Positions 6,530 through 58,641 are shown, counted from the first letter of the stretch. The stretch is 64,000 bases of DNA from an uncultured Alphaproteobacteria bacterium (GCA_947054455.1 CAMRWN010000001.1:74966-138965); one strand, 5' to 3'. Notes: a model not told the origin generated them from the letters alone. Translations and numbers: made by a program.

Positions 6530-6667
6530 ACTGTGCAAATTTACCGACCTTGCGTACCGCCGTACCCCGATAGTCTGCGCTAAGATAGCACATCAATACG
6601 AAAAATCAAGCAGAAAGTATTATATGATTTTAATCGCGAATGTGCAAGTAAAAATTCAAGTTATCTT

Positions 6668-6677: not shown

Positions 6678-6754
6678 TGTATTTTATGCACTTTTTGCTT
6701 GCGCATGTCCGCCGTTTTTTTCTACAATCGCATTATCACGAGGGGGAGAAAAAC

Positions 6755-16308: not shown

Positions 16309-16355
16309 TTTCCCTCTCCCCGACGCCTTGGTAAAATTATATCAAAAATCCGCCG

Positions 16356-33371: not shown

Positions 33372-33383
33372 GTTTCAAAACAA

Positions 33384-33410
33384 ATGCCCCAGACGGGGCA
33401 TTTATTTTGA
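33384..33410 (+). terminator. Rho-independent terminator after tRNA-Gln
   Basis: The hairpin aaatgcccc-agac-ggggcattt is followed by a T-run. Confidence 0.65.
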
Positions 33411-33636
33411 AATGATGTATCGCGCGGATTGTAATCGTCCGTTTCACACGATTACAGCAAAACGTTATTAACGTTTTGTACGCGTTTTGTTCCAAAACGC
33501 TAGTGGGGCCATCCCCACACCCCTGTGTGCGCCCCAACCAGGATAAACAAAGTCAGCACACAGGCGACTTTTTCTTTGGTTTTCCAGTGTTTGATTTCGG
33601 AAAATAGCAATTTTTTTGAACTTTCGAACTTTTTTA

Positions 33637-33645
33637 TGATAAAAT
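33637..33645 (+). promoter_or_regulatory. Extended -10 element TGATAAAAT placed 9 nt upstream of the protease ATG (leaderless-type architecture)
   Basis: TATGATAAAAT-gcacatgaa-ATG. No -35 match. The architecture parallels the TGTGATATAAT promoters found elsewhere in the window. Confidence 0.4.
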
Positions 33646-33654
33646 GCACATGAA

Positions 33655-34581
33655 ATGCGTAAGATATTTGTATTTTTATCATGTTTAATAACAGCGCCAG
33701 CGATTGCGGCTGATGATGCCTGCACAAAGCCGAAAGAGTTCACAGTCGATAAACGTTGCTATGTTACCAGTGCACAAAAAAAACAAAAGCCATTTAATGC
33801 AACAGTCGGCTTAGTTAATGGTGATTTAAAAGCATACTGTACGGGCACAATCGTGAAGGGATACTACGGATATAACGGCGATAAAGCAACCACACAAGAA
33901 AAAGAAACCATATATGTTTATACTGCCAAACATTGCACCGACCGCAACAAAGACGGCAAACCCGACACTTATCTGGATATAGTATTACAAAATGGCGACA
34001 GTTATAAAATTAAATTTGCACGTGCTGGTCAATACAAGATTCTGTCAGACGAAAAAGCTGCAGGCGACTATGCATTATATACTATAGATGAGCAAACTGA
34101 CATTCCAGGCAGCAAAATACCATATACAACAATAAGCGACAAATGGGGGTTCCTGGGACTCAGACAACTGGATGCACGTGTTGTTGGATATGGCACATTA
34201 AAGATTATGTCCGACAAAGAAATAAAAATATTCAAAAGCAAATATATTAATTTTATGAAACAACAAGGTATGTCTGCCAAGGATTCTGGTGTAAAGATAA
34301 GCACGAAGTGGGGTACAAAATTTATGCAAAACTTAGATCATGACTACCAGAACGATTTATTCGCCAACCATAGCTTGAAAGTTTCAAATTGTAAATACCA
34401 CAGTGTCGGCACACAAATAGGCTGTCAAGCATGGAGCGGTAATTCTGGGGGTGGCATATTTGATAATAATGGCGAACTGATGGGAATTTATACCAGAGGG
34501 CATCGTATCGTAGGCGGGGAAAATCATGCAGCCTCAATTACCACAACAAAATACCCATCAACAATTCCTATCGCATTTTAA
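33655..34581 (+). CDS. Secreted trypsin-like (S1/chymotrypsin-fold) serine peptidase, island-encoded
   Basis: It has a signal peptide (FVFLSCLITAPAIAADD) and a His motif (YTAKHC). An Asp lies in DYALYTID, and the Ser motif GNSGGG is a variant of GDSGGP. The gene is AT-rich relative to the window. Confidence 0.65.
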   Translation: MRKIFVFLSCLITAPAIAADDACTKPKEFTVDKRCYVTSAQKKQKPFNATVGLVNGDLKAYCTGTIVKGYYGYNGDKATTQEKETIYVYTAKHCTDRNKDGKPDTYLDIVLQNGDSYKIKFARAGQYKILSDEKAAGDYALYTIDEQTDIPGSKIPYTTISDKWGFLGLRQLDARVVGYGTLKIMSDKEIKIFKSKYINFMKQQGMSAKDSGVKISTKWGTKFMQNLDHDYQNDLFANHSLKVSNCKYHSVGTQIGCQAWSGNSGGGIFDNNGELMGIYTRGHRIVGGENHAASITTTKYPSTIPIAF

Positions 34582-34601
34582 CAAAATTTAAGGAGCGCAC
34601 A

Positions 34602-34955
34602 ATGAAACAAAAAACAGATAAGATAAAAAACTTGAAACGCGCTGGTACGATAATTGCAATCGCGGGCAGTTTGGCACTGGGTAGCGTGTCAATTTCACGC
34701 ACCACCAAAGACGACTCCACAGATCCTACAGAAAACAAGGAATATATTAAACACTTGGAACATGTTGCGGATGAAATGACACATGAGCAAAAACTGCAAT
34801 TTATTCACGATGGAAAAGAAGTATTGAATAATCTGCAACAGAAAATTGATTCTGATGAAACCAATCCCGAAGAACGCTTTGAGGCATTAAGATCAAAACG
34901 TTTGGTTAATAAGGAAATTGAAGTAATGCAGAAAAAGTTGAATAACGGAAGATAG
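34602..34955 (+). CDS. Hypothetical small secreted or membrane-anchored protein (117 aa)
   Basis: A good RBS (AAGGAG) lies 7 nt before the ATG. The N-terminal hydrophobic segment is TIIAIAGSLALGSVSIS. The gene is AT-rich and followed by a terminator hairpin at ~34984..35010. Confidence 0.5.
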   Translation: MKQKTDKIKNLKRAGTIIAIAGSLALGSVSISRTTKDDSTDPTENKEYIKHLEHVADEMTHEQKLQFIHDGKEVLNNLQQKIDSDETNPEERFEALRSKRLVNKEIEVMQKKLNNGR

Positions 34956-35029
34956 ATATCGGCAGAATATTCTACTAATACAAAGTCGCATCTAATGGTG
35001 CGATTTTTATATTCAGATTGCATACGAGC

Positions 35030-35974
35030 TCAAAACGCTTCTTCGCAACGGTGGGTTTCTTTAATAATCTTGTTTATCTTGGTCAAACTCGCAATATTAA
35101 ATCCGGTTGAAACACCACTCAGCACAGTTGTCGCACCCGCCATCACATTCGCGGTTGTATTCAGGTTCTTTTCCTTCTTTTTGCCAGATTCTGAATTATC
35201 ATTACGAATGCCCGATGAATTTGCCACGGCACTGTTTACTGTGCCGGTTGCACCGGTAACGCCCCCCGCAATACTTGTTCCCATGACAACAGTTTGCTGT
35301 TTTTCAAATTTTTCTATTTCTGTGGCGTCAATGTTTCCACACCATGTTTTTATATTATCAAGTTTCCGAACAATTGGATTTTCCATAGGATTCAGCCCGC
35401 CTACATCCGCATTTTTGACCGATGCAACCGCGTTATTACATGCAGTTATCTGCTGTATTAAATCAGACTGATTATGATTGACACCCGACACAATCGCAGA
35501 CGTAATATTTGTTGCCGTTGCACCCGCCATCAGGCCCGTACGCCAATTTCCCATTCTTTTTGAACGTTTTTCCGCATCCACCAATTGCTGTTGCAATTCG
35601 GCAATTTCAGACATCGGCAGTATAACACTGTTAAAGAAAGTATCCGGGCTCATTTGCGCCACCGTATCGGGATTACACCCGCCGGCATCACAAATCTGCT
35701 TTTCCAAGCGTTCTATTTCTTTATCTATCTGAGCCTTGGATAATCCTGCATATAATGCACCACCAGCCGCAACGGCACCAACACCGGACACAACCGTGCC
35801 TGCCGTCGTCATATTTTTCAAATGTTGCAATTCATCGGATATACCACTACAAACAGCGCTTGTTGCATTATAAAGTTGTGTAAGTTGTAAAATTCTGTCC
35901 GCATCATCTGCATGCGCTGATGTATTAAGCGTCAACACCGCAACCATAAACAAGAACAAATAACCGGATTTCAT
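35030..35974 (-). CDS. Hypothetical secreted protein (314 aa) with Gly/Ala/Thr-rich segments and scattered Cys
   Basis: It has a signal peptide (MKSGYLFLFMVAVLTLNTSAHA). The ATG lies 9 nt from a TGTGATATAAT extended -10. The gene sits in the AT-rich island. Confidence 0.6.
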   Translation of the reverse strand: MKSGYLFLFMVAVLTLNTSAHADDADRILQLTQLYNATSAVCSGISDELQHLKNMTTAGTVVSGVGAVAAGGALYAGLSKAQIDKEIERLEKQICDAGGCNPDTVAQMSPDTFFNSVILPMSEIAELQQQLVDAEKRSKRMGNWRTGLMAGATATNITSAIVSGVNHNQSDLIQQITACNNAVASVKNADVGGLNPMENPIVRKLDNIKTWCGNIDATEIEKFEKQQTVVMGTSIAGGVTGATGTVNSAVANSSGIRNDNSESGKKKEKNLNTTANVMAGATTVLSGVSTGFNIASLTKINKIIKETHRCEEAF

Positions 35975-35982
35975 GATGATGA

Positions 35983-35995
35983 ATTATATCACAAC
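35983..35995 (-). promoter_or_regulatory. TTGTGATATAATT extended -10 promoter motif; 9 nt separate TATAAT from the ATG of the 35030..35974 gene
   Basis: This is an exact copy of the 11-mer TGTGATATAAT, read on the minus strand. Confidence 0.55.
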
Positions 35996-36295
35996 ATCTA
36001 AATACAATCTATAATAAATAACATAGGTTAGCTGTTGTCCTATGTTTTTAATATATCTATAACTTGCTCGATTTCCGGTGCCATTTTTATCAAATCATTA
36101 TAATAATTAGTTCAAAGATTGTTTATCACGCACAACCAAAAACACCCCGCGGGGTGTTTTTATTTATTTACACTTTCGAGCTGCGTGGTTGTGGTCGGCC
36201 AGCATGATGCATTGATTTTTATTTAGCAGAAACTATATATATGGTATAATTTATTGGATATTTGATTTTATTGTAAAAATAACAGAGTAGCGCTT

Positions 36296-36913
36296 ATGAC
36301 AAAAGATAGTTTTTACCAAGGGATCAAACAGATAGAACTACATAAATTTTATCATGGTTCCGCAACAAAAATCAAAGGCGATTTTTTACAACCCAGAGAA
36401 CAATTTAATAGCATTCAAAACGAACGTGTAGTCGGAGCATTTGTCACATCCGACATAAAGCACGCTAAGTTTTTTGCGATTTGGAAATGTTTAACTGGTG
36501 GTGGCCAAACACAACAAGATGTAAAAAAAGGGACAAAAAGAATTTTTTTTGAAAAATTGTCTGATAATATAAAACCAGAGTTCAATTTGTATACAGTATA
36601 CGAAGCGCCCGACACAAAATTTATTCACGACAAAGGCACAGAATATTATTCGCCTGCACCAATAAAAATCTCAGAACACCAAATATGCAATACTGTTGAA
36701 GAAATAGAAAAATTAGGATATGAAATTTATGTATTAAACGAACCATTAAAAAACAAACCCGACAAACAAACTAATAACAATCAAGCTGTCCAATCTGAAA
36801 TGCATCAAGCAATTGAAAATGGAGCGTATCATCGTGTTGATATTGCAAACTTAATTGAACAACAGAAATCAAAAAACATATTTTATAAACTATTTAATTG
36901 GCAAAAAGATTAA
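36296..36913 (+). CDS. Hypothetical protein (205 aa), island-encoded, with no signal peptide
   Basis: An AT-rich ORF preceded by a TGGTATAAT extended -10 at ~36245. A terminator hairpin (aaaccgcc-aatct-gggcggttt) lies at ~36952-36975. Confidence 0.5.
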   Translation: MTKDSFYQGIKQIELHKFYHGSATKIKGDFLQPREQFNSIQNERVVGAFVTSDIKHAKFFAIWKCLTGGGQTQQDVKKGTKRIFFEKLSDNIKPEFNLYTVYEAPDTKFIHDKGTEYYSPAPIKISEHQICNTVEEIEKLGYEIYVLNEPLKNKPDKQTNNNQAVQSEMHQAIENGAYHRVDIANLIEQQKSKNIFYKLFNWQKD

Positions 36914-37098
36914 ACTGTTCGCATCACGCTGACAGACCACAACCAAGATAAACAAAACCGCCAATCTGGGCGGTTTAATATTGGTATTGGGCCACGGGTT
37001 CGCAATCGCGACAAATGTCGCCGGTTCGACTATGAGTTGGCGTTTGGCGCATGAGCGCGGCGAACGCCATACGAATGCCCCGCAGGCGCAAATGGGTA

Positions 37099-37701
37099 CT
37101 AAAGCTCCCGCTGGCGATTGCGACGTATTGTTTCCTTTATTTCCGCGCGGCGGATTTGCACGCTGTATATCAAATCCAATACATGCCGCCCATGACAGCG
37201 ACGCCCCAGAACACGGCTGTAATATCTCCGGGACAAAACAGGCGCATCATTGCTGCCCAAAACCTGGTATGCGGCCGCATCCAAAGACGATGCAAATGTT
37301 CCTTCATCCATATTAATTTCGTAAACAAAGTCCGGACTTAAAACAGCACGCGACGCAACCGCGGTCGTATCCGCACGCATGCCGGCGTCTTTTTTGCGCA
37401 TGCGCTGTTCCAATTTTTTATTTTTCGCAACCAATTCATTGTACAACGCGTTCAGCCGCACCGTGTCATGCGCCAGCATTCCTATCAGCGACGCGTCCGC
37501 AACAGGACAATGAGACGTATCACGCATATGGCGCGCGGCATAGTTATAGTGCAGCCATACCGGCCCCATATAGGCCACAAATTTATGGACTGGTTCCTCT
37601 TCCCAGACCTGGATATAAATTCTTTGGCTGCATGCGGTCGCCATCAGTGTCATCGACGCCAAGGATGCCTTTAGAACCGCATTTTTTATCTTGTTTTCCA
37701 T
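37099..37701 (-). CDS. Hypothetical lipoprotein (200 aa)
   Basis: The N-terminal signal ends in the lipobox LMATAC. No family recognised. Confidence 0.5.
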   Translation of the reverse strand: MENKIKNAVLKASLASMTLMATACSQRIYIQVWEEEPVHKFVAYMGPVWLHYNYAARHMRDTSHCPVADASLIGMLAHDTVRLNALYNELVAKNKKLEQRMRKKDAGMRADTTAVASRAVLSPDFVYEINMDEGTFASSLDAAAYQVLGSNDAPVLSRRYYSRVLGRRCHGRHVLDLIYSVQIRRAEIKETIRRNRQREL

Positions 37702-37837
37702 TTGTTTAAATTCCGGATATGCATAATTTCATAGTTATTCCTGTAAACATAACCACAAATCAGCAAAAATGCAATATGACGATTTTAAAAAAAATTTGAT
37801 GACAAAAATCAAAACAATGTTATTATAGGGTACGTCC

Positions 37838-37912
37838 GCTCCCATCGTCTAGCGGTTAGGACATCAGATTCTCATTCTGACGACACGGGTTCGAGTCCCG
37901 TTGGGAGTGCCA
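37838..37912 (+). tRNA. trnE: tRNA-Glu (anticodon CUC)
   Basis: The sequence is GCTCCCATCGTCTAGCGGTTAGGACATCAGATTCTCATTCTGACGACACGGGTTCGAGTCCCGTTGGGAGTGCCA. It folds as a cloverleaf with anticodon loop TTCTCAT (CTC), a GGTTCGAGTCC T-arm, a G1-U72 wobble in the acceptor stem and a 3' CCA. A terminator hairpin follows (gcccc-aaa-gggc, T-run). Confidence 0.75.
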
Positions 37913-37965
37913 AGATAAAAAAATTGCCCCAAAGGGCATTTTTTTTACGCCAAACTACCCACTAA

Positions 37966-38700
37966 TCAATTTTTATCCCCGTAATACAGACGCTTGTATT
38001 CACGGTGCACGACGTTCATCAGTTCGCGGCGGGGCGTGCGCTGTTCGGCGGAAAAGACGTATGAAAAATCGCCGTACATATTGTCTTCCCAATCTATAAA
38101 GGTGGTGATTTCCATTGTTTCTGGATTCACCAAAAAATTGTCGCATATATCACCCTGGAACCATCCGTACATAAATCCGGGCGCACCCGCGTCGGCCGGT
38201 TTCAAATCGCGCAATTGGGCCGGATCCCGACGCGCGATTTCATGGATAAAAACCGCAATCTGACGCGCCAGCGTATCAATATTGGCCAACACATCTTCGG
38301 TCGACAACTGACGCAGCGTGCATCCGCGAATAAATTCATACTTGCGAACAATGTGTCCGTCATAGTCCAGCAGCTCCACCCCCGGTATCGGTATTGGCGA
38401 GACGGCATGAAACACATCGACAACACGCTTTTCACGCAGCGCAAGTTCGCGCGAATTGTCCCGGCGCAGCGGAAACTTGTATATATATTCGTCGTTAACG
38501 CCTATAATCAGATTGCGCGTCTGCTGACCGACGAACATCTTGACCCGGCGCAGCGGCTGCTTCAAATCTTTTTTAATAAACTTTATATGCCGTATTGTCG
38601 GCGAATTCAATACCGCACGCAGCGTTTTGCGCCGATGCTTGTTATAAACCAGCGCACAAATAATATTCGTAAAAAAACGCCTGATTTTTGAGCTTTCCAT
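37966..38700 (-). CDS. Phosphotransferase/kinase-like protein (aminoglycoside phosphotransferase/choline kinase fold)
   Basis: A 244-aa ORF with a Brenner-like motif (QGDICDNFLV) and a downstream IDWED motif resembling the APH catalytic and Mg-binding loops. Confidence 0.5.
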   Translation of the reverse strand: MESSKIRRFFTNIICALVYNKHRRKTLRAVLNSPTIRHIKFIKKDLKQPLRRVKMFVGQQTRNLIIGVNDEYIYKFPLRRDNSRELALREKRVVDVFHAVSPIPIPGVELLDYDGHIVRKYEFIRGCTLRQLSTEDVLANIDTLARQIAVFIHEIARRDPAQLRDLKPADAGAPGFMYGWFQGDICDNFLVNPETMEITTFIDWEDNMYGDFSYVFSAEQRTPRRELMNVVHREYKRLYYGDKN

Positions 38701-38718
38701 TATGCATCCACCGCGCGG

Positions 38719-39096
38719 TTATGATACCGACAATATTTCGCGCGCCTTGCGCAGCATCGAAAGCGCCAATTCTATTTCCGCCCGCGCCGGCGCCGCATCA
38801 CACTGCGCCGCCACAGGCGTGTCGGCCGGCGCCTGAATTTCATCAACGGATTTTGGCAATGTGCCGTCGCGCAGCAATTTCTTGACGCCCGCGATTGTCA
38901 TTCCGCGCGTATACAGCAAGTCCTTGATGACGGCCAGTCGCGACACGGTTTCCGCACGATAATAACGGCGGCCACCCGCGCCTGTTGTCGGCTTTATCAC
39001 GACGGGAAACTGCTTTTCCCAATAGCGCAGGGTATGCGCCGGCACGGACAGACGTTTTGAAACCTCGTTAATGGATGCAAAGTATTCGTTATCCAT
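38719..39096 (-). CDS. MerR-family transcriptional regulator
   Basis: It has the N-terminal HTH (SINEVSKRLSVPAHTLRYWEKQF) and the MerR signature RRYYRAETV. Confidence 0.8.
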   Translation of the reverse strand: MDNEYFASINEVSKRLSVPAHTLRYWEKQFPVVIKPTTGAGGRRYYRAETVSRLAVIKDLLYTRGMTIAGVKKLLRDGTLPKSVDEIQAPADTPVAAQCDAAPARAEIELALSMLRKAREILSVS

Positions 39097-39108
39097 GCCG
39101 GCCCCCGT

Positions 39109-41862
39109 TTATTGTTGCGCGTCCGTACCGGCATCAGTGTCGATGACGGCTTCTTCTTCGGCGCTGTCGTCTTTTTCAATCGAAATGGCAGAGACAACCT
39201 TTTCGTTTTCCGCCGTGCGGAACAGCGTCACACCCGCCGTCGCGCGGCCCGCGATGCGAACATCGGACACCGGCGTGCGAATTATCTTCCCGCCGTCAGT
39301 TACCATTATTATGTCATGGTCGTCGGATACCGGGAACGAACCGGCGACAGCCGTGTTCTTGCCACCCAGTTTTATATTCGCAAACCCGCCGCCGCCGCGA
39401 TGCGTGATTCGATATTCATAGGAACTGGTGCGCTTGCCGAATCCGTTTTCCGAAATGGTCAGGATAAATTCTTCGGCCGCGGCCATTTCGGCCATCTTGG
39501 CGTCGTCCAGAATCATGTTTGTCGTCTCTTCATCGGCGTCGCCGGCATCTTCCTCTATTCCGGTGGCGGCGCGGCGTGCGGCACGCGACTGACGTATATA
39601 TGCGGCGCGGACGGCGGAATCAGCCTCGCCGTGGTTCAGCATGGCCATGCCGATGATGCGGTCGTCGGCCCCCAGTGTCATTCCGCGCACGCCGGTCGAA
39701 TTGCGGCCTGCGAACACGCGGATTTCCGGAACGGGGAATCTGATGCAGCGGCCGCGGTACGTCGCCAGAAATACATCCTGGTCTTCGGTACACGGCAGAA
39801 CTGAAATCAGGCTGTCGCCCTCGTCCAGTTTCATCGCGATTTTACCGTTGGCACGGATTGAATCAAAATCGGACATGCGGTTGCGGCGAACTGTTCCGGA
39901 CGCGGTTGCGAACATCAGGAAATGTTCCTTGCCGGATTCGCGCGCGCGTTGCACGTCCTCGTCGGCGACGGGCAGAATCGCGGTTATTGTCTCGCCGTTT
40001 TCCAACGGCAACAGATTGACCAACGGGCGCCCCTTGGCCGCGGCGGCCGCCTCTGGCAGCTTATAGGTCTTGAGTTTATAGCATATTCCCTTGGAACTGA
40101 AGAACAGCAGCGGTGTATGCGTGTTTGCGACAAACACCTGAACCACATAATCGTCGTCCTTGGTCGCCATGGCATTGCGTCCCTTGCCGCCGCGTTTTTG
40201 CGCACGGTAAGTATCCAGCGCCACGCGCTTGATATACCCGGTGTTCGACACGGTTATAACCATGTCCTCGCGGGCGATTAAATCTTCGATATCAATATCG
40301 ATTTCGGCATCGGATATGTCCGTGCGGCGCGGCTGGGCCCAGTTGTCGCGCACAGCCGTGGTTTCGTCGCGGATGATTTGGACAATGCGTTCATGACTGC
40401 CCAGAATTTCCAACAAATCCTTAATCTGCGCACCCAACCCGGTCAGGTCGTCGTGAATCTTGTCGCGTTCCAGCCCGGTCAAACGGTGCAGCTGCAGTTC
40501 CAGAATCGCGCGCGCCTGGTCTTCGGACATGCGGAACATTCCGTCCTTGTATTCGGTATTCGGGTCGTCAATCAGCTGAATATAATATTCAATGTCAGAC
40601 GCGGCCCATGTGCGCGCAACCAACGCGTTGCGTGCCGCCTCTGGATTTTCACTGGATTTTATCAGTTCTATAACCTCGTCCAGGTTGCCGACCGCCACCG
40701 ACAGCCCCAGCAAAGTATGCGCACGGTTGCGCGCCTTGTTCAGGTCGAATATCGTGCGACGGCGAATAACCTCTGTCCGGAATTCAACGAACGCGTCCAA
40801 AACACCGCGGATATTAAACAGCATCGGCCGGCCACGGTTCAGCGCCATCATATTAACCGGGAAATTCGTCTGCATTTCCGTGTATTGGAACAAATGGTTC
40901 AATACCACGTCCGCAATTGCGTCGCGCTTTAGTTCAATAACGATGCGCAATCCTTCCTTTGACGACTCGTCTCGGATTTCGGATATTCCTTCGATGCGCT
41001 TGTCCTTTATCAGTTCGGCGATTTTGATAATCATCTGCGCCTTGTTCACCTGATACGGTATTTCATCAACGATAATCGCCTGATGGTCGCGAAATTCCTC
41101 GATATGGGTCTTGGCGCGAACAATAATCGAACCGCGGCCTGTGGTGTGCGCCTTGTATGCGCCGGCGCGCCCCATTATGACCGCCCCCGTCGGGAAATCC
41201 GGCCCCGGGATAATCGTAAACAATTCGTCGTCGGTTATCTGCGCGTTGTCCAGCACGGCCAGGATGCCGTTGCAAACCTCGCCCAGGTTATAGGTCGGGA
41301 CGTTTGTCGCCATACCGACGGCAATACCGCTGCCGCCGTTGACCAGGAAATTCGGGAACTTGGTCGGCAAAACCACAGGTTCGGACAGCGTGCCGTCGAA
41401 ATTCGGCATCCAGTCAACGGTGTCCTTTTCCATATCGTCCATCAACGACGCCCCCAGTTTGGACAACCGCGCCTCTGTATAACGCATGGCGGCGGGTTTG
41501 TCGCCGTCGCGTGAACCGAAGTTTCCCTGCCCCTGAACCAGCATTTCGCCCATGGAAAAATCCTGGGCCATACGGGCCATCGCCTCGTATATAGAACTGT
41601 CGCCGTGCGGATGATACTTACCCATAACATCACCGACGATACGCGCGGATTTAACGGTCGCCTTGGTTGCGGGCGCCACGTCGTTCATGACGTAGAGAAT
41701 GCGGCGATGCACGGGCTTGCACCCGTCGCGCACATCGGGCAGCGCACGGTCAACGATAACCGACATCGCGTAATCCAAAAAGCTGGTCCGCATTTCGTGT
41801 TCCAGGGAAGACTGCGGAATTTTTATTTCGTTTGTTTCATTAACATTGTTGATTTCGGACAT
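39109..41862 (-). CDS. gyrA: DNA gyrase subunit A
   Basis: The GyrA N-terminus is present ([31 protein letters not shown]; active-site region ..AMRYTEARL..), with C-terminal beta-pinwheel repeats. The start is placed at MSEINNV (41862); the track ORF begins 20 codons upstream. Confidence 0.9.
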
Positions 41863-41944
41863 ACTTAACCTTTCCCTATTTTTAACATGCAAAATATAGC
41901 AAATATTTCGGCTTTTGGTCAAGAAATAAACCCCAAATTTTAGA

Positions 41945-41973
41945 TTGACAAAACCACGATTTGTGGTATTATT
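41945..41973 (+). promoter_or_regulatory. Near-consensus sigma70 promoter (TTGACA-N17-ATTATT/TATTAT)
   Basis: The sequence ttgaca-aaaccacgatttgtggt-attatt lies upstream of the small ORF at 42001. Its spacer contains a 5-bp inverted repeat (accac...gtggt). Confidence 0.5.
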
Positions 41974-42000
41974 ATTTTGTTTAAACCAAGGTATAAAAAC

Positions 42001-42186
42001 ATGAGTGTTATAAAGTCGGCAATTCAGGATAACCTGAAAAACGTGGAAGAAACAATATCTGACCCGAAAACAAACGGTCTGCAGCGTACCCAGCTGTATG
42101 GAATGCAGATGAACATGTTATGCATGCTGGCCATTACAGAGGCGGTTGAAAAAATAATCGCAAAATGCCGCGGCCGTCAAAAATAA
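42001..42186 (+). CDS. Hypothetical small protein (61 aa from MSVIK; 69 aa from the upstream Met)
   Basis: An ORF downstream of a strong promoter and upstream of rpmH. No family recognised. Confidence 0.35.
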
Positions 42187-42358
42187 AGGCAAACAGCACA
42201 ATGAACATATTTTTACCGGCATACAGATTTTTTATAGCGATTTTTGTCTACTACCTGATGCTGGAGGCATTAAAAAAGCTTGGACTGATAAAATCCAAAT
42301 AAAAAGGTTGCTTTTTTATAAAACGTATGCTTAAATATGCGCACAAAAGGATTTAGTT

Positions 42359-42511
42359 ATGGCAACAAAACGTACTTATCAACCTTCTAAAACGCGCCGC
42401 GTGCGTACGCACGGGTTCCGTGAAAGAATGTCAACCAAGGGCGGACGCGAGGTTTTGAACCGTCGTCGCGCGTGCGGTCGCAAAAGATTGGCGGCAACTG
42501 CTGCAAATTAA
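42359..42511 (+). CDS. rpmH: 50S ribosomal protein L34 (50 aa, below the ORF-track cutoff)
   Basis: Manual translation gives [50 protein letters not shown], the canonical L34 sequence. An RBS AAAGGA lies 8 nt upstream. The terminator hairpin aaaatcccccgattgggggatttttatttt follows at 42511-42545. Confidence 0.9.
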
Positions 42512-42611
42512 AAAATCCCCCGATTGGGGGATTTTTATTTTTCCAAAAATCAATAAGTGCCGCCTTTACCCCGCAACAATTAACTGTTAAGGCATTGATT
42601 CCATGCAGTGG

Positions 42612-42624
42612 TTGTGATATAATC
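42612..42624 (+). promoter_or_regulatory. TTGTGATATAATC extended -10 promoter motif upstream of the secreted repeat-protein operon
   Basis: An exact TGTGATATAAT 11-mer, 56 nt upstream of the ATG at 42680. Confidence 0.5.
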
Positions 42625-42679
42625 AAACGTAAAAATTATATTCGCAATTTGGATTTTATGATAAGGGGGAAATTTTTCA

Positions 42680-42954
42680 TGAAGCATCGATTGCTGCCGA
42701 TAGTTTTTACGGCTCAATGCTTTATATTATCTATGCCGTCTTTTGGTGCCACACCAAACGAACAGGTGGCATCTGCGGCATATGTCGACAACCGCGTCAA
42801 CGAAATGGAAAGCCGCACCGTCAACAAGGACGAATTCAAAACATTTTCCGACGAACTGCCCAATCGCTTTGTCGACACCACCGAAAATCAGACAATTTCC
42901 GGTGTAAAAACTTATACGTCTTCCCCGATTGTTCCGACGCCGCCGCTGCCGTAA
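42680..42954 (+). CDS. Small secreted hypothetical protein (91 aa), first gene of a two-gene operon
   Basis: A strong RBS (AAGGGGGA) lies 7 nt before the ATG. It has a signal peptide (MKHRLLPIVFTAQCFILSMPSFGA). Its stop overlaps the next gene's start (TAATG). Confidence 0.6.
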
Positions 42955-44231
42955 TGATAAAACGTCTGCTGATTCTTTTTTGCATATTGTTCGCACCCGC
43001 CGCCCGGTCGGCGGAAATGGTCAGCGTCGAATACATTCACAACGCCATCGAACAACGCTGCGGCATCGTCGTGCCGTACAATCCCGCGCTGGGCAACAAG
43101 AAAGTCGCCGCAAATATGAAATATCTGCTGACGGCGATTGACCGGGCGAACGAAATACAAAACAACCGGGCCGTTTCACACTACGGCGACAATTCGACAT
43201 TTGCAACAATGGCGGCCGCCGACACGGTCGCGACAAATGACGCGATTGACCGCCTGATAAAGATGCCGTTTACCATCACCACAACGCCCGATACAACCGT
43301 GTTCAACTTTGACCTGTCCGCGCGCGGAACATTTGCGGTCAACTGGGGCGACGGCACGTTCCAAACAATCCAGCGCGATAATACAGAATTACAAACATAT
43401 TCCCACACATACGCCAAGGCCGGCAAATATAAAATCGGAATTGCCGGAACGGCAACAGGATATAGCATTGCGGACGACACCCCAAACACAACCGCGGCAA
43501 TACATTTTAGAAAGAACGAAAACATTGCGGAAATTCATGGCTCGGTTGGGGCAATATTCGGCACCATCGGCGATGGCACGATTGCCGGAAATCAACCGAA
43601 TTTTCGCAACACATTCCGCGAATGCCCCAACCTGACCAGCGAAATTCCCGCCGAATTGTTCGACGGCGTTCATGGCGCGCCCGTTCCATGGATGTTTGCC
43701 GGAACTTTTGAAGCCACGCCGTTTTCTGGTTCCATACCTGAAAATTTGTTTTCCGGCATACAGGGCAGTCCGATATTCGCAATGTTTAACAACACATTCA
43801 AAGAAAGTAAGATTTCCGGCACGATACCCGCAAAACTGTTCAGCGGGATACACGGCGCGCCCGCGCCCTATATGTTCGCCGGCACATTTTACTGGGTGGA
43901 AAACTTGACCGGTAGCATCCCCGCAGGCATGTTTGCCGGAATTCGTGGTGAACCTGCAATATATATGTATCACGGCTTGTTTGTTAATTGTTCCGGTCTG
44001 ACCGGCCAGATTCCCGAAAATTTGTTTGGCGACATTTCCGGCCCCGCCGCCGAATTCATGTTTCGTTATACATTCCAAAACTGCAGCGGTCTGACCGGGC
44101 CGTCGGCGCGTATCAACGGCAAATATCTGTATGAAATATGGCCCGACGCGCCCGCCAACGCAACCCAGTTATGCTATAAAAGCGTAACAGGCTTATCCGA
44201 TTATGCCACGATACCGGCGGCATGGAAATAA
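42954..44231 (+). CDS. Secreted protein with ~6 tandem ~31-aa LRR-like repeats of pattern MF.GTF...L(T/S)G.IP..LF.GI.G.P (DUF285/BspA-like character)
   Basis: It has a signal peptide (MIKRLLILFCILFAPAARSA). Six repeats cover aa ~215-400, for example MFAGTFEATPFSGSIPENLFSGIQGSPIFA, MFNNTFKESKISGTIPAKLFSGIHGAPAPY and MFAGTFYWVENLTGSIPAGMFAGIRGEPAIY. The ORF is translationally coupled to the upstream small gene. Confidence 0.7.
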   Translation: MIKRLLILFCILFAPAARSAEMVSVEYIHNAIEQRCGIVVPYNPALGNKKVAANMKYLLTAIDRANEIQNNRAVSHYGDNSTFATMAAADTVATNDAIDRLIKMPFTITTTPDTTVFNFDLSARGTFAVNWGDGTFQTIQRDNTELQTYSHTYAKAGKYKIGIAGTATGYSIADDTPNTTAAIHFRKNENIAEIHGSVGAIFGTIGDGTIAGNQPNFRNTFRECPNLTSEIPAELFDGVHGAPVPWMFAGTFEATPFSGSIPENLFSGIQGSPIFAMFNNTFKESKISGTIPAKLFSGIHGAPAPYMFAGTFYWVENLTGSIPAGMFAGIRGEPAIYMYHGLFVNCSGLTGQIPENLFGDISGPAAEFMFRYTFQNCSGLTGPSARINGKYLYEIWPDAPANATQLCYKSVTGLSDYATIPAAWK

Positions 44232-44255
44232 AAATCCCCGCGAACGCAGGGATTT

Positions 44256-44453
44256 TTATCTGATGCGCAGCGCATCCAAAATTCGCATAAAATCATGCAC
44301 GGCGACAATTTCCGCGCCGCGTTCAATTGCGCGATAACTCCGGGCCGGAATTCCGGACATAGATGCCGCATCATGCACGGTTATATTTCGCCGGCAACGC
44401 AGACCGCACAGCTCGCGCCCTAATTTTGTATAAAATATTTCTTCGTCCGTCAT
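44256..44453 (-). CDS. XRE-family HTH transcriptional regulator (65 aa)
   Basis: It has an HTH_XRE-like core (LRCRRNITVHDAASMSGIPARSYRAIERG). Confidence 0.55.
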   Translation of the reverse strand: MTDEEIFYTKLGRELCGLRCRRNITVHDAASMSGIPARSYRAIERGAEIVAVHDFMRILDALRIR

Positions 44454-44462
44454 ATGCGCCCC

Positions 44463-44813
44463 CTATTTTACCGACGCCAGGCGGTCAATCAACGCGCAGA
44501 CCATTGCGCGGTCGGATTCCCCCATCAGACACAGCCCCTCGATTGCGCGGCGCGTATCCGCATCGTATATGTCGCCACGGCGAAGCTCGGTAAACACACC
44601 GTCAAACGGCGCGTCCAGTATTTTCAAAATATTATAAAATCGCGAAACCGACATGCGGTTTGCGGCAACCTCGTACTTTTGCATTTGCTGAAAGGTTATT
44701 CCCAATTGCGCGGCCAATGCCTTTTGCGACAGGCCTTGCCTGCGCCGCAATATACTGACCAGTTGCCCGGCCTGAACATCAATGGCCGTCGGCGTGAATG
44801 GTTTTCCAGACAT
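44463..44813 (-). CDS. XRE-family HTH transcriptional regulator (116 aa)
   Basis: It has a canonical HTH_XRE (LRRRQGLSQKALAAQLGITFQQMQKYE). The RBS is GGGGGAG. Confidence 0.7.
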   Translation of the reverse strand: MSGKPFTPTAIDVQAGQLVSILRRRQGLSQKALAAQLGITFQQMQKYEVAANRMSVSRFYNILKILDAPFDGVFTELRRGDIYDADTRRAIEGLCLMGESDRAMVCALIDRLASVK

Positions 44814-45343
44814 TCATCTCCCCCCGTTGTCTTAAACAAAAAACCACCGGAAATTATTTCGAGGTGGTTGGAGGTAGAAAACAATAAACCAGAGTAATTG
44901 CCTGTCTTATTCAATATATTCGACAGCCCCCAACCATTCAGTTGAAGTATGTGCCTGCGCCTGCATCAGGCGCATCTGGTTTAGAGGTTTTCCAGCCTCA
45001 CATTCGCAATGGGTGTACGAATTATGCAATTACATTATATCCCATCGGGCGCAAAATTCAACCGATAAAAATATAATGCCCGCCGTCAAAGACAAAGCGG
45101 GACTGGAGCTAGTAATAGCACAATACCATGCCAGTGATTTATTGATTATTCATCACCATCCAGTCCCATTGGACTGGCATTTAACGCATGCAGGCGGGTA
45201 TTGTGCGGGATTACTAGTCCCGCATAATGGATTCCCATTACAGGTGATATTATATCCTATATCATATGAAATTTCAAATAAAAAACATAATCCAATTGAC
45301 AGAGGCAAATAAAAATCCCCGCATTCGCGGGGCACAGGAGTAT

Positions 45344-53539: not shown

Positions 53540-55606
53540 CTATAAAACCTCTACAAAATTTTTCATGACATTTTTTATTCCGCACGAACCGAACGCCACG
53601 GTCAGCACGTCGCCGTTTTCCGCGATAACGGTGCCGCGGCCCATTTCCGCATGCGCGACCAGTTTGCCGACCATCGTGGTCGAAATTCTGGGGCGCGGGG
53701 CCGGGCGCGGGCCGTATGCACGCGGAACGTCGGCATATGCACGGCGCGGCGCACCGCCCTGGAAATCCAAAAACGCACCGTCCATTTCAGTGATGAACCG
53801 GCTGGGCGAATTATACTGTCGCGTACCGAAAACCATGCGCGACATCGCGTTTAATATAACCGCACGGCGGCGCGCACGCGTTATCGCGACATAGGCCAGA
53901 CGACGCTCCTCTTCCAGGGCGCCCTCCGACACGGCCTTGTCGTTGGGGAATATTCCCTCCTCCCAGGCGGGCATGAACACCGTGTCAAATTCCAGACCCT
54001 TGGCCGCATGTATTGTCATTATACTGACCACGTTGCCGTTTTGGCGGACTTCGCCCTCGTCATCATCGGTGGTCATCAGGGCGGCTTGCTCTAAAAATTC
54101 GGGCAGGCTTTCATACTTTGCAATTACGTTCGTTATCAGTTCGCGAATATTGTCCAGTCGGTCTGACGCGTCGGCATCCTTGGATTCACGCCACATCTTC
54201 AGGTATCCGCTGCGTTCCAGCAGGGTCTGTGCCGCCTCACGCGGGGGCATGGTCGCCCAGTCGAAATCAAACGCCCCCAGAAATTCGTCCGCCGCCGCAC
54301 GTTGTTTCGCCGGCAGCGCGGCTGCACGCAACCCGGTCATCAAATCGGCGCCCGCCGCACGCAGCTTGTCTATTGCGGCCGCACCGAAACCGCGCCGCGG
54401 CTTTGCAATAACGCGCAGAAACGATATATCGTCAAACGGATAGACCAGCAGTCGCAAATATGCAATCGCATCACGGATTTCCATCCTGTCATAAAACTTG
54501 GTCGCGCCGACAAGGCGGTACGCAATGCCGCGGCGCGCAAACTCTTCTTCAAACAGGCGCGACAGACTGCCCGCGCGTATCAAGACCGCATGCCGACTAA
54601 GATTTTCAGTACCTTCGCGGGAAATCGCATCGGCGACGACGCGCGCCTCGTCCAAATCGGACGGCACCGTCAGGATATATACCGGCTCGCCGTCGTTAAC
54701 GTCGGGCGCGCTGCGCAAATCCTTGCCCAGGCGGCCGCGATTGTGCCGTATCAGGGAATTTGCCGCCCCCAGGATGCGGGGCGTGCTGCGATAATTTGTT
54801 TCCAGACGGATTATCTGAACATCATCATATGTCTTGTCAAAATTCAGGATATGTTTTATCTCGGCCCCGCGCCATGAATATATGGACTGGTCGTCATCGC
54901 CGACGCAGCATATGTTCGGTTGCGGACGGACACGGGTCAGCATCTCCAGAAACTGCATCTGCGCGCTGTTGGTATCCTGGAATTCATCAACCATTATATA
55001 TTTGAACTGGTTTTGATAACGCCCCAGAATTTCTGGATTGGAATCAAACAGCTGCAAGACCTTTAGTATTATGTCCCCGAAATCAACCGCGTTCAGCCGC
55101 GCCAGTTCCGCGTTGTACGCGGCAAACATCTTGTCCGGATGGGACAGCGCGTCCAGCCCCCGGTCCTTGATTGCGGAAAACTGTTCCACATAATCGCCGG
55201 GTGTTTTTGTCGCACCGCCCGACGCGGTCAGCAGGCTTTTCACGACAGCCTTTTGGTCGTCTTCGCCAAATATTATGAAATCCCGGCGCAATCCGGCGGC
55301 GGCCGCATTCGCACGCAGTATCCGCAGACATACCGAATGAAACGTGCCGCACCACAAATCCGCGGCGTTCCACGTGGCGGACGCGTCCGCAAAATCTGCG
55401 ATACGCCGCTTCATTTCATTGGCCGCCTTGTTCGTGAATGTCAGGGCCAGCACCTGCCACGGCATCGCCAGACCGGTGTTCAATATATGCGCGACGCGCG
55501 TTGTCAGAACGCGCGTCTTGCCCGTCCCCGCCCCCGACAGAACCAACAGCGGCCCTTCGGTCGTTTCGACGGCCAGACGCTGTTCGTTGTTAAGATTTTC
55601 TAGCAT
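53540..55606 (-). CDS. uvrD: UvrD/Rep/PcrA-family ATP-dependent DNA helicase
   Basis: The Walker A (LVLSGAGTGKTRVLT) and UvrD helicase motifs are present (TFTNKAANEM, VDEFQDTN, TIHAAKGLEFD, VAITRAR). The start is placed at MLENLN. Confidence 0.85.
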   Translation of the reverse strand: MLENLNNEQRLAVETTEGPLLVLSGAGTGKTRVLTTRVAHILNTGLAMPWQVLALTFTNKAANEMKRRIADFADASATWNAADLWCGTFHSVCLRILRANAAAAGLRRDFIIFGEDDQKAVVKSLLTASGGATKTPGDYVEQFSAIKDRGLDALSHPDKMFAAYNAELARLNAVDFGDIILKVLQLFDSNPEILGRYQNQFKYIMVDEFQDTNSAQMQFLEMLTRVRPQPNICCVGDDDQSIYSWRGAEIKHILNFDKTYDDVQIIRLETNYRSTPRILGAANSLIRHNRGRLGKDLRSAPDVNDGEPVYILTVPSDLDEARVVADAISREGTENLSRHAVLIRAGSLSRLFEEEFARRGIAYRLVGATKFYDRMEIRDAIAYLRLLVYPFDDISFLRVIAKPRRGFGAAAIDKLRAAGADLMTGLRAAALPAKQRAAADEFLGAFDFDWATMPPREAAQTLLERSGYLKMWRESKDADASDRLDNIRELITNVIAKYESLPEFLEQAALMTTDDDEGEVRQNGNVVSIMTIHAAKGLEFDTVFMPAWEEGIFPNDKAVSEGALEEERRLAYVAITRARRRAVILNAMSRMVFGTRQYNSPSRFITEMDGAFLDFQGGAPRRAYADVPRAYGPRPAPRPRISTTMVGKLVAHAEMGRGTVIAENGDVLTVAFGSCGIKNVMKNFVEVL

Positions 55607-55673
55607 TAAATTCACGCCTCTATTATAATACACAAAGTTTGTTAATCAAAAATATATTTTATGGGGAAGGAAA

Positions 55674-56351
55674 ATGAAACGCGTCATCTGCTTTGACATT
55701 GAAACAACCGGATTTGATTACCTGCGCGGGGACCGGTGCATCGAAATCGGCGCGGTGGAACTGATAGACGGAAAACTGACCGACAATTCATTTCACGAAT
55801 ACATAAACCCCGAAGGAAAAATCATTCCGCCTGAAACATACATGGTTCACAAAATTTCAAACGCATTTCTGGAAGACAAGCCAAAGATGTCCGAAATTGC
55901 GCCGAAATTTCTGGAATTCATCGGCGACAGCCCCGTCATCGCCCACAACGGACTGGACTTTGACTTTCCCTTTGTAAATCATGAACTGTCAAAACTGGGC
56001 CTGCCCCAGATTCCGCGTGAACAGCAATTCGACACGCTGGTCATCGCGCGCAACCGCGTATTCGGCCCCAAGAGCTATACTTTGGACGCACTGGCAAAAT
56101 GGTTTGGAATATCGCTGGCGACGCGTGCGGACGCGCACGGGGCGCTAATCGACTCTGAAATTCTGGCCAAGGTGTATGTGGAACTGGAAAACACCGCACC
56201 GGCGCCCGACATCCGCGATATAATTGCCGACCATCACAAGGCCATGCTGGCCCATCCGAAAATAGGCGCAGATTTTCCACGACGCAAATTTGCCCCGCAT
56301 GCGGACGAACTGGCCAATCATACGGCGTTTATGGAAAAGATAACGGCATAA
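55674..56351 (+). CDS. dnaQ: DNA polymerase III epsilon subunit-like 3'-5' exonuclease
   Basis: The three DEDDh exonuclease motifs are present: Exo I (FDIETTG), Exo II (IAHNGLDFDFPF) and Exo III (HGALIDSEILAKVY). Confidence 0.85.
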   Translation: MKRVICFDIETTGFDYLRGDRCIEIGAVELIDGKLTDNSFHEYINPEGKIIPPETYMVHKISNAFLEDKPKMSEIAPKFLEFIGDSPVIAHNGLDFDFPFVNHELSKLGLPQIPREQQFDTLVIARNRVFGPKSYTLDALAKWFGISLATRADAHGALIDSEILAKVYVELENTAPAPDIRDIIADHHKAMLAHPKIGADFPRRKFAPHADELANHTAFMEKITA

Positions 56352-56352
56352 A

Positions 56353-56396
56353 AAAAATCCCGCGCAGTTTGATGCGCGGGATTTTTTTTATTTTGT
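56353..56396. terminator. Bidirectional rho-independent terminator between dnaQ and the 743-aa secreted protein gene
   Basis: The 10-bp GC stem atcccgcgca-gtttga-tgcgcgggat is flanked by A and T runs. Confidence 0.75.
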
Positions 56397-58619
56397 TTCC
56401 TGTTGTGTACAGATACCGCCCTTCATGCTGTATCCCTCATCACATACGCATTGGCCCGTGGTCGGGTTGCGCTTTGAATTGGCGCCACAGTTCAAAACAC
56501 AGGCCGTCCCCCACAGCGTATATCCAACATTGCAGGTGCATCTGGCGTTGACATAACACTTCTGGGTAGGCGACGCAACGCAACCGTTTACGCTCAACGT
56601 CGATTCTTCCTGCTGATATGTGGAATTTTCCGGACACAGCAACGACTGATAGAACATTTCGGAAATATTACTGATGCATGTATCCGGGCTATCGGCGGGG
56701 CATAGCGCTTTATCATCATTATCCGTGGCATCCTGGAACACCGCATACGCACAGGTCAGCGCAACATTGCGGCACGCACCACGCATTACGTTGTAAATGC
56801 TGTTGATTGTTGCTGACGAAGACCATGAATTAACCTGGGTCACCTGCTGGTTATAACATGTCGCGATTTCAGTCATGCATGTTGACGCATAATCCGAAAT
56901 AATCTTTTGCTGCGCGGCCTTGATGTTTACCATCGCACGCTGTACATAATTTACAACAACATCGTTATACGGCTCATAAGTTCCGGACGACGAATATGTG
57001 TAATTCTGACACTTGTCCAAAACCGCACGGCACAGACCACCATCGGTGGTTTTTTGCCCCGTTCCGATTTTCGTCATCAGATATTTTACATTGCACGCTC
57101 CGTCGCCGCCTTTACCGTCATCACCAACGCAGGCGTCCTTGCTGATTGAAGACATTTTGTCCGCGGCTGCCAGAAAACCGCGGTTAATATCCGCATTGTT
57201 ATAGTTTTCCATAAACGTGGTTATATCGGTTATATTCTGCCCCAGGACGACATTGCCGTTTTCGTCGATATATCTTTTCGTCGGGTCCAGACACTTGTTG
57301 TAATCGGCACCGCACACCATGTCGTCGGTCATGCATGCATCCAGCGCGGCGATGCATCCCTTGGCATCGTATTGGTTCTTGTTCTGCAAAACGGCCAGAC
57401 GCGCCTTTTGCAGCATGCGACCCGCACTGCGCACATTTGACACCAGCGTTTCATTCATCTTGGTCAATCCCTGCTCGTACGCGATACAGTCCTTGTCAAT
57501 CGCCAGGTCGTAATTGCCGGTTATCTGCTGGGACGTGGCGCCAACCTCCTTGCACTGGGTCAGGATTGTGTTGCAGCGCCGTTTTGCCGCATTATACAAT
57601 TCCGTTCCGCGCAGGTTTGAAAAACTGCTGCTGGCGCCGGCATTCAGGAAATCCAGACTAAACATGTCGGAATTGTCGGCCGAAAAATCCAAATCTATAT
57701 CAAATCCGTTGTATGTGTCCGCGGAATAGGAGGTCGCACTGACCGGGTCTTTTATCAGCTTTTCAATTTCATCAAGCATGCTGCGCGTTTCGGTGCTATC
57801 CACCTTGCCCGACAGTGCCTCTTCCGCCTCTGTCGCGGTCATAATCGCACGTATTTCATCAGCCGACAAACCAACATAGCGAATACGCTGCGCGACATCG
57901 TTAAGCTGGGTGTTGGCCTCTTTCACGGCATTTTCAACCTTGGTGTATCGCGACAGGTTTGCACTGCAGCTGCAGCGTTTCTGATTTGCGTCGACAACCG
58001 CGCAGAACTGGTCCATGCAGTCATTATACTGTTCCTGGCAGGATTTGTTAAGCTCCGCCGTTTGTTCCAGACGCTCCTTGGCCTCTGCTATGGATTCGCG
58101 GGTTGTTTGTGCTGCGGCACGGGCGCTGACACTGCGGGCGCTGGACGCAACGTTTGACCCCGTCTGAATATTTGTTTCACCGATTGTGGCGCGGCCCCCG
58201 ACCTCTGCCGTGCTGGGGCGCAGCGTCACGCCCACCCGGCGCAACGCGGGGTCGTTGTTTATTGCAGCGGCGCTGACGCGGGCGTTGCGACCAACCGTGT
58301 TCACCGCCGCATCCAGACCGGCGCGCGACGCGACGGCCGCAGACGACGACTGGGCCGCGCGATGCGCGACACTGGATTGACGCACACTGGCCGTATCACG
58401 CGTTGGCGCGGCGGCCGACGCATCAGACGCCGTACGTGAAATTGTGCGCGACGGCGCGGCCGCGGTGCGCGCGACGGCCGTGCGGGCGGTGTCGGTCGAC
58501 GACGGCGCCGCAGTTGCGCCCGATGACGGAATCACGCGCGATGCAGTCGCACCGTCGGCCGCAAACGCGCCGGGTGCAAAAAACATTCCGCAGAAAAAGC
58601 ACAGTGCAAGTTTATTCAT
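56388..58619 (-). CDS. Large secreted Cys-rich hypothetical protein (743 aa) with a ~190-aa Ala/Ser/Thr/Arg-rich low-complexity N-terminal region
   Basis: It has a signal peptide (MNKLALCFFCGMFFAPGAFAADG). More than 45 Cys are concentrated in the C-terminal 550 aa, with no recognisable repeat family. Its ATG lies 10 nt from a TGTGATATAAT extended -10. Confidence 0.65.
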   Translation of the reverse strand: MNKLALCFFCGMFFAPGAFAADGATASRVIPSSGATAAPSSTDTARTAVARTAAAPSRTISRTASDASAAAPTRDTASVRQSSVAHRAAQSSSAAVASRAGLDAAVNTVGRNARVSAAAINNDPALRRVGVTLRPSTAEVGGRATIGETNIQTGSNVASSARSVSARAAAQTTRESIAEAKERLEQTAELNKSCQEQYNDCMDQFCAVVDANQKRCSCSANLSRYTKVENAVKEANTQLNDVAQRIRYVGLSADEIRAIMTATEAEEALSGKVDSTETRSMLDEIEKLIKDPVSATSYSADTYNGFDIDLDFSADNSDMFSLDFLNAGASSSFSNLRGTELYNAAKRRCNTILTQCKEVGATSQQITGNYDLAIDKDCIAYEQGLTKMNETLVSNVRSAGRMLQKARLAVLQNKNQYDAKGCIAALDACMTDDMVCGADYNKCLDPTKRYIDENGNVVLGQNITDITTFMENYNNADINRGFLAAADKMSSISKDACVGDDGKGGDGACNVKYLMTKIGTGQKTTDGGLCRAVLDKCQNYTYSSSGTYEPYNDVVVNYVQRAMVNIKAAQQKIISDYASTCMTEIATCYNQQVTQVNSWSSSATINSIYNVMRGACRNVALTCAYAVFQDATDNDDKALCPADSPDTCISNISEMFYQSLLCPENSTYQQEESTLSVNGCVASPTQKCYVNARCTCNVGYTLWGTACVLNCGANSKRNPTTGQCVCDEGYSMKGGICTQQETK

Positions 58620-58628
58620 TCTCAGCTA

Positions 58629-58641
58629 AATTATATCACAA
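58629..58641 (-). promoter_or_regulatory. TTGTGATATAATT extended -10 promoter motif; 10 nt separate TATAAT from the ATG of the 743-aa secreted protein gene
   Basis: An exact TGTGATATAAT 11-mer, read on the minus strand. Confidence 0.55.

Follow-up and report, generated by a model that had tools for sequence, protein, structure and literature searches.

An 11-mer preceding VirB6-like, secreted-protein and housekeeping genes of an Enterousia-like alphaproteobacterium most probably represents the ordinary extended -10 promoter element

The stretch of DNA analysed here, a 64-kb window, belongs to a 'Candidatus Enterousia'-like gut alphaproteobacterium of the order Rs-D84. Enterousia genomes are smaller than about 1 Mb, and the lifestyle of the group is probably partner-dependent (PMC12306168). 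The window encodes a virB8-virB9-virB10 cluster, whose members are its only genes of a type IV secretion system (T4SS) verified by profile (Pfam), as well as a separate row of VirB6-like genes, several signal-peptide proteins and a set of housekeeping genes. The element under study is the 11-mer TGTGATATAAT, which recurs upstream of these different kinds of gene, and which a preliminary description had taken for an extended -10 promoter marking a dedicated regulon of secretion channel components and secreted substrates. The copies in the window, their conservation in related genomes and their use by housekeeping genes make it highly probable that the 11-mer is instead the housekeeping extended -10 element, and thus a part of the general promoter architecture of this lineage rather than the mark of a secretion regulon.

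Copies of the 11-mer and their match to the extended -10 consensus

Four exact copies of TGTGATATAAT lie in the window (Table 1), compared with 0.06 expected, and four or more copies arose in 0/100 dinucleotide-preserving shuffles. Sites with at most one mismatch number 8, against 1.16 expected. The preliminary description had reported the four exact copies, as 13-nt spans shifted by 1-2 nt, together with the one-mismatch copies TCTGATATAAT and TGTGATATAGT, and all six are present; two further near-copies, TTTGATATAAT and TGGGATATAAT, were not in its list. It had also placed each copy directly before a gene start and in the correct orientation, and this holds for the four exact copies and its two near-copies, with distances to the start of 8-55 nt. 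The shorter pattern TGnTATAAT occurs 9 times in the window, where 1.6 occurrences are expected. When the window is taken together with the first 80 of the related loci described below, the density of extended -10 patterns in intergenic DNA is 11-24 times that in coding DNA, and for TGTG-type patterns the ratio is 17-24-fold. Some of the motif counts assigned to coding DNA are probably intergenic, because the greedy calling of open reading frames (ORFs) placed false plus-strand ORFs over the minus-strand rplKAJL-rpoB cluster (1-6300), as was exposed by Pfam matches to L10 and NusG.

An extended -10 element consists of T-17 R-16 T-15 G-14, placed a single base upstream of the -10 hexamer; it is read by sigma domain 3 and bypasses the contact of sigma domain 4 with the -35 box, and the sequence TGTGcTATAAT has been named the 'perfect extended -10 consensus' (PMC6212719). 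Judged by its sequence, TGTGATATAAT is the full sigma70 extended -10 consensus with an A at the unconstrained -13 position. The hexamer TATAAT is exact in the four exact copies and in three of the near-copies, and reads TATAGT at 48249. T-15 and G-14 stand one nucleotide 5' of the hexamer in 7 of the 8 copies, the exception being 45034, which has GG. Positions -17/-16 are TG at 35983, 42613, 48271, 48249, 58630 and 45034, TC at 46894 and TT at 16336. The preliminary reading of the 11-mer as an extended -10 promoter is therefore supported, both by its match to the published consensus and by the general lack of a good -35 box.

The -35 match is only 3-4/6, and without TTG, at 35983, 48271, 48249, 58630, 46894 and 16336, and promoters with an imperfect hexamer carry -35 boxes that match at 5-6/6 positions. 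The earlier statement that no copy has a convincing -35 is thus accurate for five of the six promoters it concerned, but not for the one at 42613, which lies 3' of the rpmH terminator, has a TTGATT box with a 17-nt spacer, and gives a 55-nt leader with a Shine-Dalgarno sequence. Its downstream gene at 42679 encodes a 91-aa signal-peptide protein, and the stop codon of this gene overlaps the start of the repeat-protein gene at 42954-44231. The companion statement, that housekeeping promoters in the window are of the ordinary -35/-10 kind, likewise stands in part: the tRNA-Gln promoter is plain, but the 41945 promoter carries TGTG in addition to its -35 box. The tRNA-Trp promoter is another -35-bearing housekeeping promoter with TGTG. 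A fixed -35-like T-tract is not claimed as an element, as T-runs occur at some of the promoters with an inconsistent spacing of 13-19 nt.

Table 1. Copies of the 11-mer and other promoters in the window, with the genes that follow them
Position	Strand	Element	Gene or unit	Remarks
48271..48281	+	TGTGATATAAT, extended -10	VirB6-like B-E operon (48313-53527)	exact match; 31 nt to TTG 48313
48249..48259	-	TGTGATATAGT, divergent extended -10	VirB6-like paralogue A (46954-48240)	8 nt to ATG 48240
46894..46904	-	TCTGATATAAT, promoter	conserved 169-aa gene (46376-46885)	8 nt to ATG 46885
58630..58640	-	TGTGATATAAT, promoter	743-aa Cys-rich signal-peptide protein (56388-58619)	10 nt to ATG 58619
42613..42623	+	TGTGATATAAT, promoter	two-gene signal-peptide operon (42679-42954, 42954-44231)	55 nt to ATG 42679
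35983..35993	-	TGTGATATAAT, promoter	314-aa signal-peptide protein (35030-35974), 40% GC island	8 nt to ATG 35974
16336..16346	-	TTTGATATAAT, promoter	Na+/H+ exchanger/TrkA-N (KefB-like) gene (14602-16308)	leader with Shine-Dalgarno
45034..45044	-	TGGGATATAAT, near-copy	~190 nt structured non-coding, hairpin and T-run, then two XRE-type helix-turn-helix (HTH) genes	
41945..41972	+	TTGACA-N16-TGTGgTATTAT	small ORFs and rpmH (L34, 42359-42511)	
6582..6609	-	TTGATT-N16-TGTGcTATCTT	tRNA-Trp-secE-nusG-rplKAJL cluster	
6699..6728	+	TTGCGC-N18-TACAAT, -35/-10 promoter	virB8-virB9-virB10	without TG extension

Conservation in relatives and use by housekeeping genes

In place of a genome-wide census, the motif was followed through 160 related loci (2.4 Mb) from two genomic neighbourhoods, 80 around the VirB6-like locus and 80 centred on nusG. 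The first 80, which are orthologous to the VirB6-like locus, comprise 1.58 Mb at 35-54% GC and derive from gut and rumen metagenome-assembled genomes (MAGs) labelled Candidatus Enterousia, uncultured Alphaproteobacteria or 'Rickettsiales', one of them a closed MAG of 958,618 bp. Across these loci TGTGATATAAT is the commonest 11-mer that is not poly-A/T, with 117 copies, and TCTGATATAAT has 87.

At the promoter of the B-E operon, TGTGATATAAT is kept exactly at the orthologous position in 73/80 loci, with the consensus AAATGTGATATAATTGA. Similarly, the 169-aa gene is preceded, at 8 nt, by an exact TCTGATATAAT in 74/80 loci, with the C at -16 also kept. The promoter of the Cys-rich protein has the exact TGTGATATAAT in about 30-35 of the 80 loci and the form TGTG[A/T/G]TATAAT, with a variable -13 base, in about 45-50 of 55. 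Paralogue A is preceded in relatives by T[A/G]TGATATA[C/G]T, in which -16 is G or A. The intergenic columns beside the motif are far less conserved than the motif itself. Conservation at orthologous loci, which the preliminary description had named as a point to check, is thus found at the B-E, 169-aa and Cys-rich promoters, and from this pattern the motif copies are taken as functional sites under purifying selection. A TRTGn consensus accommodates this variability: before paralogue A it affects -16, and at -13 the Cys-rich promoter admits A, T or G and mraY admits A or G.

The region of the 169-aa gene is conserved beyond its promoter: the entire 68-nt intergenic region 5' of the gene is conserved, and the first ~30 coding nucleotides (ATGAAACAGTTTCCGATTCTTTATTGG) are kept at the nucleotide level, many synonymous sites included, among species of 35-54% GC. 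The protein itself (46376-46885) has no family match, and neither a signal peptide nor a transmembrane segment is predicted for it.

The extension is not confined to genes of secretion. The Pfam-confirmed mraY gene is preceded by TGTG[A/G]TA[A/G]AAT and a leader with a Shine-Dalgarno sequence in 46/50 relatives, and ftsW/rodA in relatives by [G/C]ATG[G/A]TATAAT at 8-9 nt from the ATG. Among 61 distinct sequences from the nusG-centred metagenomic loci, the tRNA-Trp-secE-nusG promoter, CTTGATT-N-TGTG[C/G]TAnnnT, has TG in 61/61, TRTG in 59/61 and TGTG in 55/61. Within the window, the TGTG/TRTG-type extension is also present at the rpmH-linked 41945 promoter, the near-copy TTTGATATAAT, with its TT at -17/-16, stands before the KefB-like gene, and TGn with a TAnnnT hexamer is found at gyrA, tRNA-Glu, lspA, marR and a HAD-hydrolase gene.

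Conversely, the T4SS core is served by a promoter of another kind. In 37/37 distinct orthologous upstream regions, the virB8-10 promoter has the form TTGCnn-N16-19-TAnnAT, and TG at -15/-14 occurs in 0/37 of them. The TG of the related variant that the preliminary description had placed before virB8, at 6668, is out of register, and the conserved promoter lies instead at 6699-6728 (Table 1). The association of the motif with VirB6-like, secreted and envelope genes holds for five of the six copies then listed and fails for the 169-aa gene, whose product has neither a signal peptide nor a transmembrane segment. A dedicated regulon, as proposed, is contradicted by the presence of the motif at housekeeping genes and by its absence from virB8-10. 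A generic housekeeping -10 found before unrelated genes, the very outcome that the preliminary description had named as speaking against its regulon, is essentially what is seen at mraY, tRNA-Trp-secE-nusG, the rpmH-linked promoter and the KefB-like gene.

Alternative explanations and a model of promoter recognition

Several observations weigh against regarding the 11-mer as nothing more than the housekeeping extended -10. A-13, and C-16 at the 169-aa gene, are held more tightly than a pure RNA polymerase (RNAP) consensus needs, and at the 169-aa and B-E promoters conservation runs 3-6 nt past the 11-mer, so an additional overlapping signal may be present at these two sites. Within the two neighbourhoods sampled, the families with a conserved -35-less extended -10 encode mostly membrane or secreted proteins, a predominance that may be a sampling artefact. 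In Alphaproteobacteria the 3' end of the -10 element is reported to be less conserved, and the strict TATAAT/TRTG of this lineage is somewhat unusual for the class. Furthermore, dependence on RpoD is an indirect assignment, because the window covers neither rpoD nor the sigma-factor inventory, and the transcription starts, promoter strength and leaderless translation discussed below are likewise predicted.

The envelope predominance bears most directly on the possibility that -35-less, often leaderless TRTGaTATAAT promoters form a distinct class wired to envelope, cell-wall and secretome genes, and tuned collectively by a factor acting on sigma domains 3/4, by temperature or by supercoiling and topology. 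The proteins concerned include MraY, FtsW, VirB6-like A and B, an MliC-like lipoprotein and Cys-rich secreted proteins; the translation-apparatus genes for L31 and tRNA-Gln, as well as virB8, on the other hand, have -35-type promoters, and extended -10 promoters are known to differ in their response to factors such as RbpA (PMC6212719). Yet with two neighbourhoods sampled, gene content is confounded with locus, and there are exceptions in both directions, as PBP1A and VirB8 are without the motif and the cytoplasmic-looking 169-aa protein has it. This explanation is therefore considered unlikely, although it is the strongest of the alternatives. Were it true, such promoters would replace dedicated regulators by minimalist means in a genome below 1 Mb, and the tight conservation of A-13 and of the flanking bases would reflect an extra layer of control.

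The regulon originally proposed, in which an alternative sigma factor or a TGTGA-binding activator co-regulates VirB6-like channel genes and secreted substrates, draws on some of the same evidence: five of the six copies listed at first precede membrane or signal-peptide proteins, the -35-less extended -10 stands mostly before envelope proteins at the family level, and conservation of the motif is very strong at the VirB6-like locus. However, TATAAT with TGTG is the consensus of group-1 sigma factors (PMC6212719). The extension is moreover conserved before mraY, tRNA-Trp-secE-nusG, the rpmH-linked promoter and the KefB-like gene, all 37 virB8-10 promoter regions lack the TG, and the 169-aa product lacks both a signal peptide and a transmembrane segment. 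No alternative sigma factor is known to have a TATAAT-type consensus. MarR, MerR and XRE regulator genes are encoded in the window, and nothing ties them to the motif. Such a regulon is accordingly judged improbable.

It is less credible still that TGTGA is the half-site of a dimeric regulator of the CRP/FNR type that overlaps the -10. TGTGA is indeed a CRP half-site, and the copies before paralogue A and the B-E operon form the inverted repeat ATATCACA-N11-TGTGATAT. This repeat is everted (TCACA...TGTGA), though, and is fully explained by the two back-to-back promoters; no TCACA partner is found at N6 in the 8 copies, where the sequences are TCATC, CAAAC, TGAAA, TTAGC, TCATA, TAAAA, TTTAC and GTAAT. 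The other sites are single and partnerless, and the -16 base can be A or C. Finally, an origin of the copies from a mobile promoter cassette or dispersed repeat that spread through duplication or transposition can practically be dismissed. Four identical 11-mers do exceed chance, and one of them lies in a low-GC island beside a duplicated tRNA-Gln 3' end. In every pair of copies, however, the identity of the 40-nt flanks is about random (7-19/40 upstream and 4-18/40 downstream), so the copies are independent, and each site is kept at its own orthologous position in ~70 species.

Under the favoured explanation, that of a housekeeping extended -10, the RpoD holoenzyme would bind these promoters through sigma domain 2, reading TATAAT, and domain 3, reading TGTG, such that the -35 box would be largely dispensable. 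A near-perfect match would be expected to give strong, probably constitutive transcription. Genes without a usable -35 would then carry a near-perfect extended -10, and -35-bearing genes, such as the tRNA-Trp/nusG cluster, the rpmH-linked promoter and gyrA, would tolerate a weaker hexamer and retain TG or TGTG. The exact repeats would represent independent copies of one optimal RNAP-binding sequence, maintained by purifying selection.

The position of the element relative to the start codon is a further feature of these promoters. A -10 hexamer lies 6-10 nt before the start, without a Shine-Dalgarno sequence, at 35974-35993, 46885-46904, 48240-48259, 58619-58640, 33635-33657 and 26905-26917, and the median spacing of 8 nt between hexamer and ATG is kept in 73 orthologues of the 169-aa gene. 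A hexamer that ends 8-10 nt from the ATG leaves no room for a Shine-Dalgarno sequence and implies a leader of 0-3 nt, that is, a leaderless mRNA. Leaderless messages are thus predicted for the 314-aa island protein, the 169-aa gene, paralogue A, the Cys-rich protein, ftsW in the relatives and the island protease. Leaders with a Shine-Dalgarno sequence are found at mraY, the B-E operon and the KefB-like gene, and only about half of the motif-bearing genes fall into the leaderless group.

Taken as a whole, the element is a known class of promoter in a fresh instance from a poorly studied lineage, which is useful for annotation and not surprising. An apparent virulence regulon motif turns out, on this explanation, to be the best ordinary promoter of the organism, and a false lead is removed. 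What emerges for the uncultured Rs-D84/Enterousia group is a promoter model in which -35-less TRTGnTATAAT promoters exist alongside types with a TTGAYT or TTGCnn -35 box, frequent leaderless starts are predicted, and the promoters of the VirB6-like operon, mraY and the 169-aa gene have been held invariant across ~70 species. Such a model should aid the annotation of gene starts, the prediction of expression and future heterologous expression.

Local gene context and comparison with known systems

Five adjacent polytopic paralogues of ~400-480 aa, one divergent and four in an operon, occupy 46954-53527 and are found in essentially all Enterousia-like genomes. The VirB6-like families have a median of 7-8 predicted transmembrane segments. 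None of the five has any Pfam match (E<=10) or NCBIfam match, TrbL/VirB6 included, and a profile search of the PDB with the alignment of the 49582-50802 paralogue was without a match. Homologues of this last product are abundant. The AlphaFold (AF2) model of the 49582-50802 paralogue is of low confidence (predicted local distance difference test, pLDDT, 62). In a Foldseek search of the PDB with this model, the top two matches were TrwI/VirB6 of R388 (E 0.012-0.017, prob 1.0, target TM-score 0.5), and every other match had a TM-score <0.2. On this structural model, the identity of the paralogues as VirB6 is plausible but unproven.

The promoters of paralogue A and of the B-E operon stand back to back at 48249-48281, their 11-mers on opposite strands being separated by 11 nt, and this layout is kept in ~70 species. 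Each TGTGAT provides ATCACA, a 4/6 match to TTGACA, at the -35 position of the other promoter, and this mutual supply of a -35 may explain the conserved spacing. It is probably not possible for polymerase to occupy both promoters simultaneously. A different double arrangement precedes tRNA-Trp-secE-nusG in the nusG-centred loci, where two conserved promoters lie in tandem (6582-6650(-) in the window), the upstream one being CTTGCn-N17-TATAAT and the downstream one CTTGATT-N-TGTGcTAnnnT. At 55600-55675, UvrD/Rep-like helicase and dnaQ-like genes diverge from a region of ~65 nt with the palindrome ATTATAAT at its centre (55623-55630), which could be a shared bidirectional -10 element.

No ORF directly follows the near-copy TGGGATATAAT within 44838-45044(-). 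The ~190 nt downstream of it fold at -66.3 kcal/mol (z = -4.45) and end in a hairpin and T-run, after which come a Shine-Dalgarno sequence and the ATG of the XRE-type HTH genes (44463-44813 and 44256-44453). This non-coding stretch has no Rfam match at E<=1 and is a candidate for a small RNA or a long structured leader.

The island at ~33400-37800, between tRNA-Gln and tRNA-Glu, has 40% GC compared with ~52% elsewhere, and encodes a trypsin-like protease and signal-peptide proteins. At its edge the 3' end of tRNA-Gln (GTGCGCCCCAACCAG, 33358-33372) is repeated exactly 169 nt downstream, at 33527-33541, and this repeat looks like the att-site remnant of an integrated element.

Among known systems, the rvh T4SS of the Rickettsiales, with its five tandem VirB6 (RvhB6) paralogues, resembles the present locus in gene context only, namely in the five adjacent polytopic paralogues and the separate virB8-9-10 cluster. 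Unlike RvhB6, the proteins here are much shorter and have no TrbL/VirB6 match in Pfam or NCBIfam. With regard to the promoters, housekeeping promoters of the Campylobacter/Helicobacter type combine a TGn-extended -10 with a T-rich upstream region that replaces the -35. The T-runs CTTTTTT and TCTTTT, located 17-19 nt 5' of TATAAT at the 169-aa and Cys-rich promoters, recall this arrangement, but the spacing of the T-tract is not uniform here, and other promoters retain a TTGACA-like -35. A likeness also exists to the promoters of leaderless mRNAs in Actinobacteria, Deinococcus and Caulobacter, in that at least five genes have a hexamer ending 8-10 nt before the ATG, too close to admit a Shine-Dalgarno sequence.

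The closest counterparts are the extended -10 promoters of sigma70/sigmaA, such as sinP3 of M. tuberculosis (TGTGcTATAAT), galP1 of E. coli and those of many Firmicutes. The present case differs from them in its alphaproteobacterial host, in the preference for A at -13 and in a base-for-base conservation across ~70 species, and the element is recognised here from sequence alone. It shares with them the spacing of the TG, T-17 and R-16, a weak or absent -35 and a location 5' of gene starts, and apart from the free -13 base the sequences are identical.

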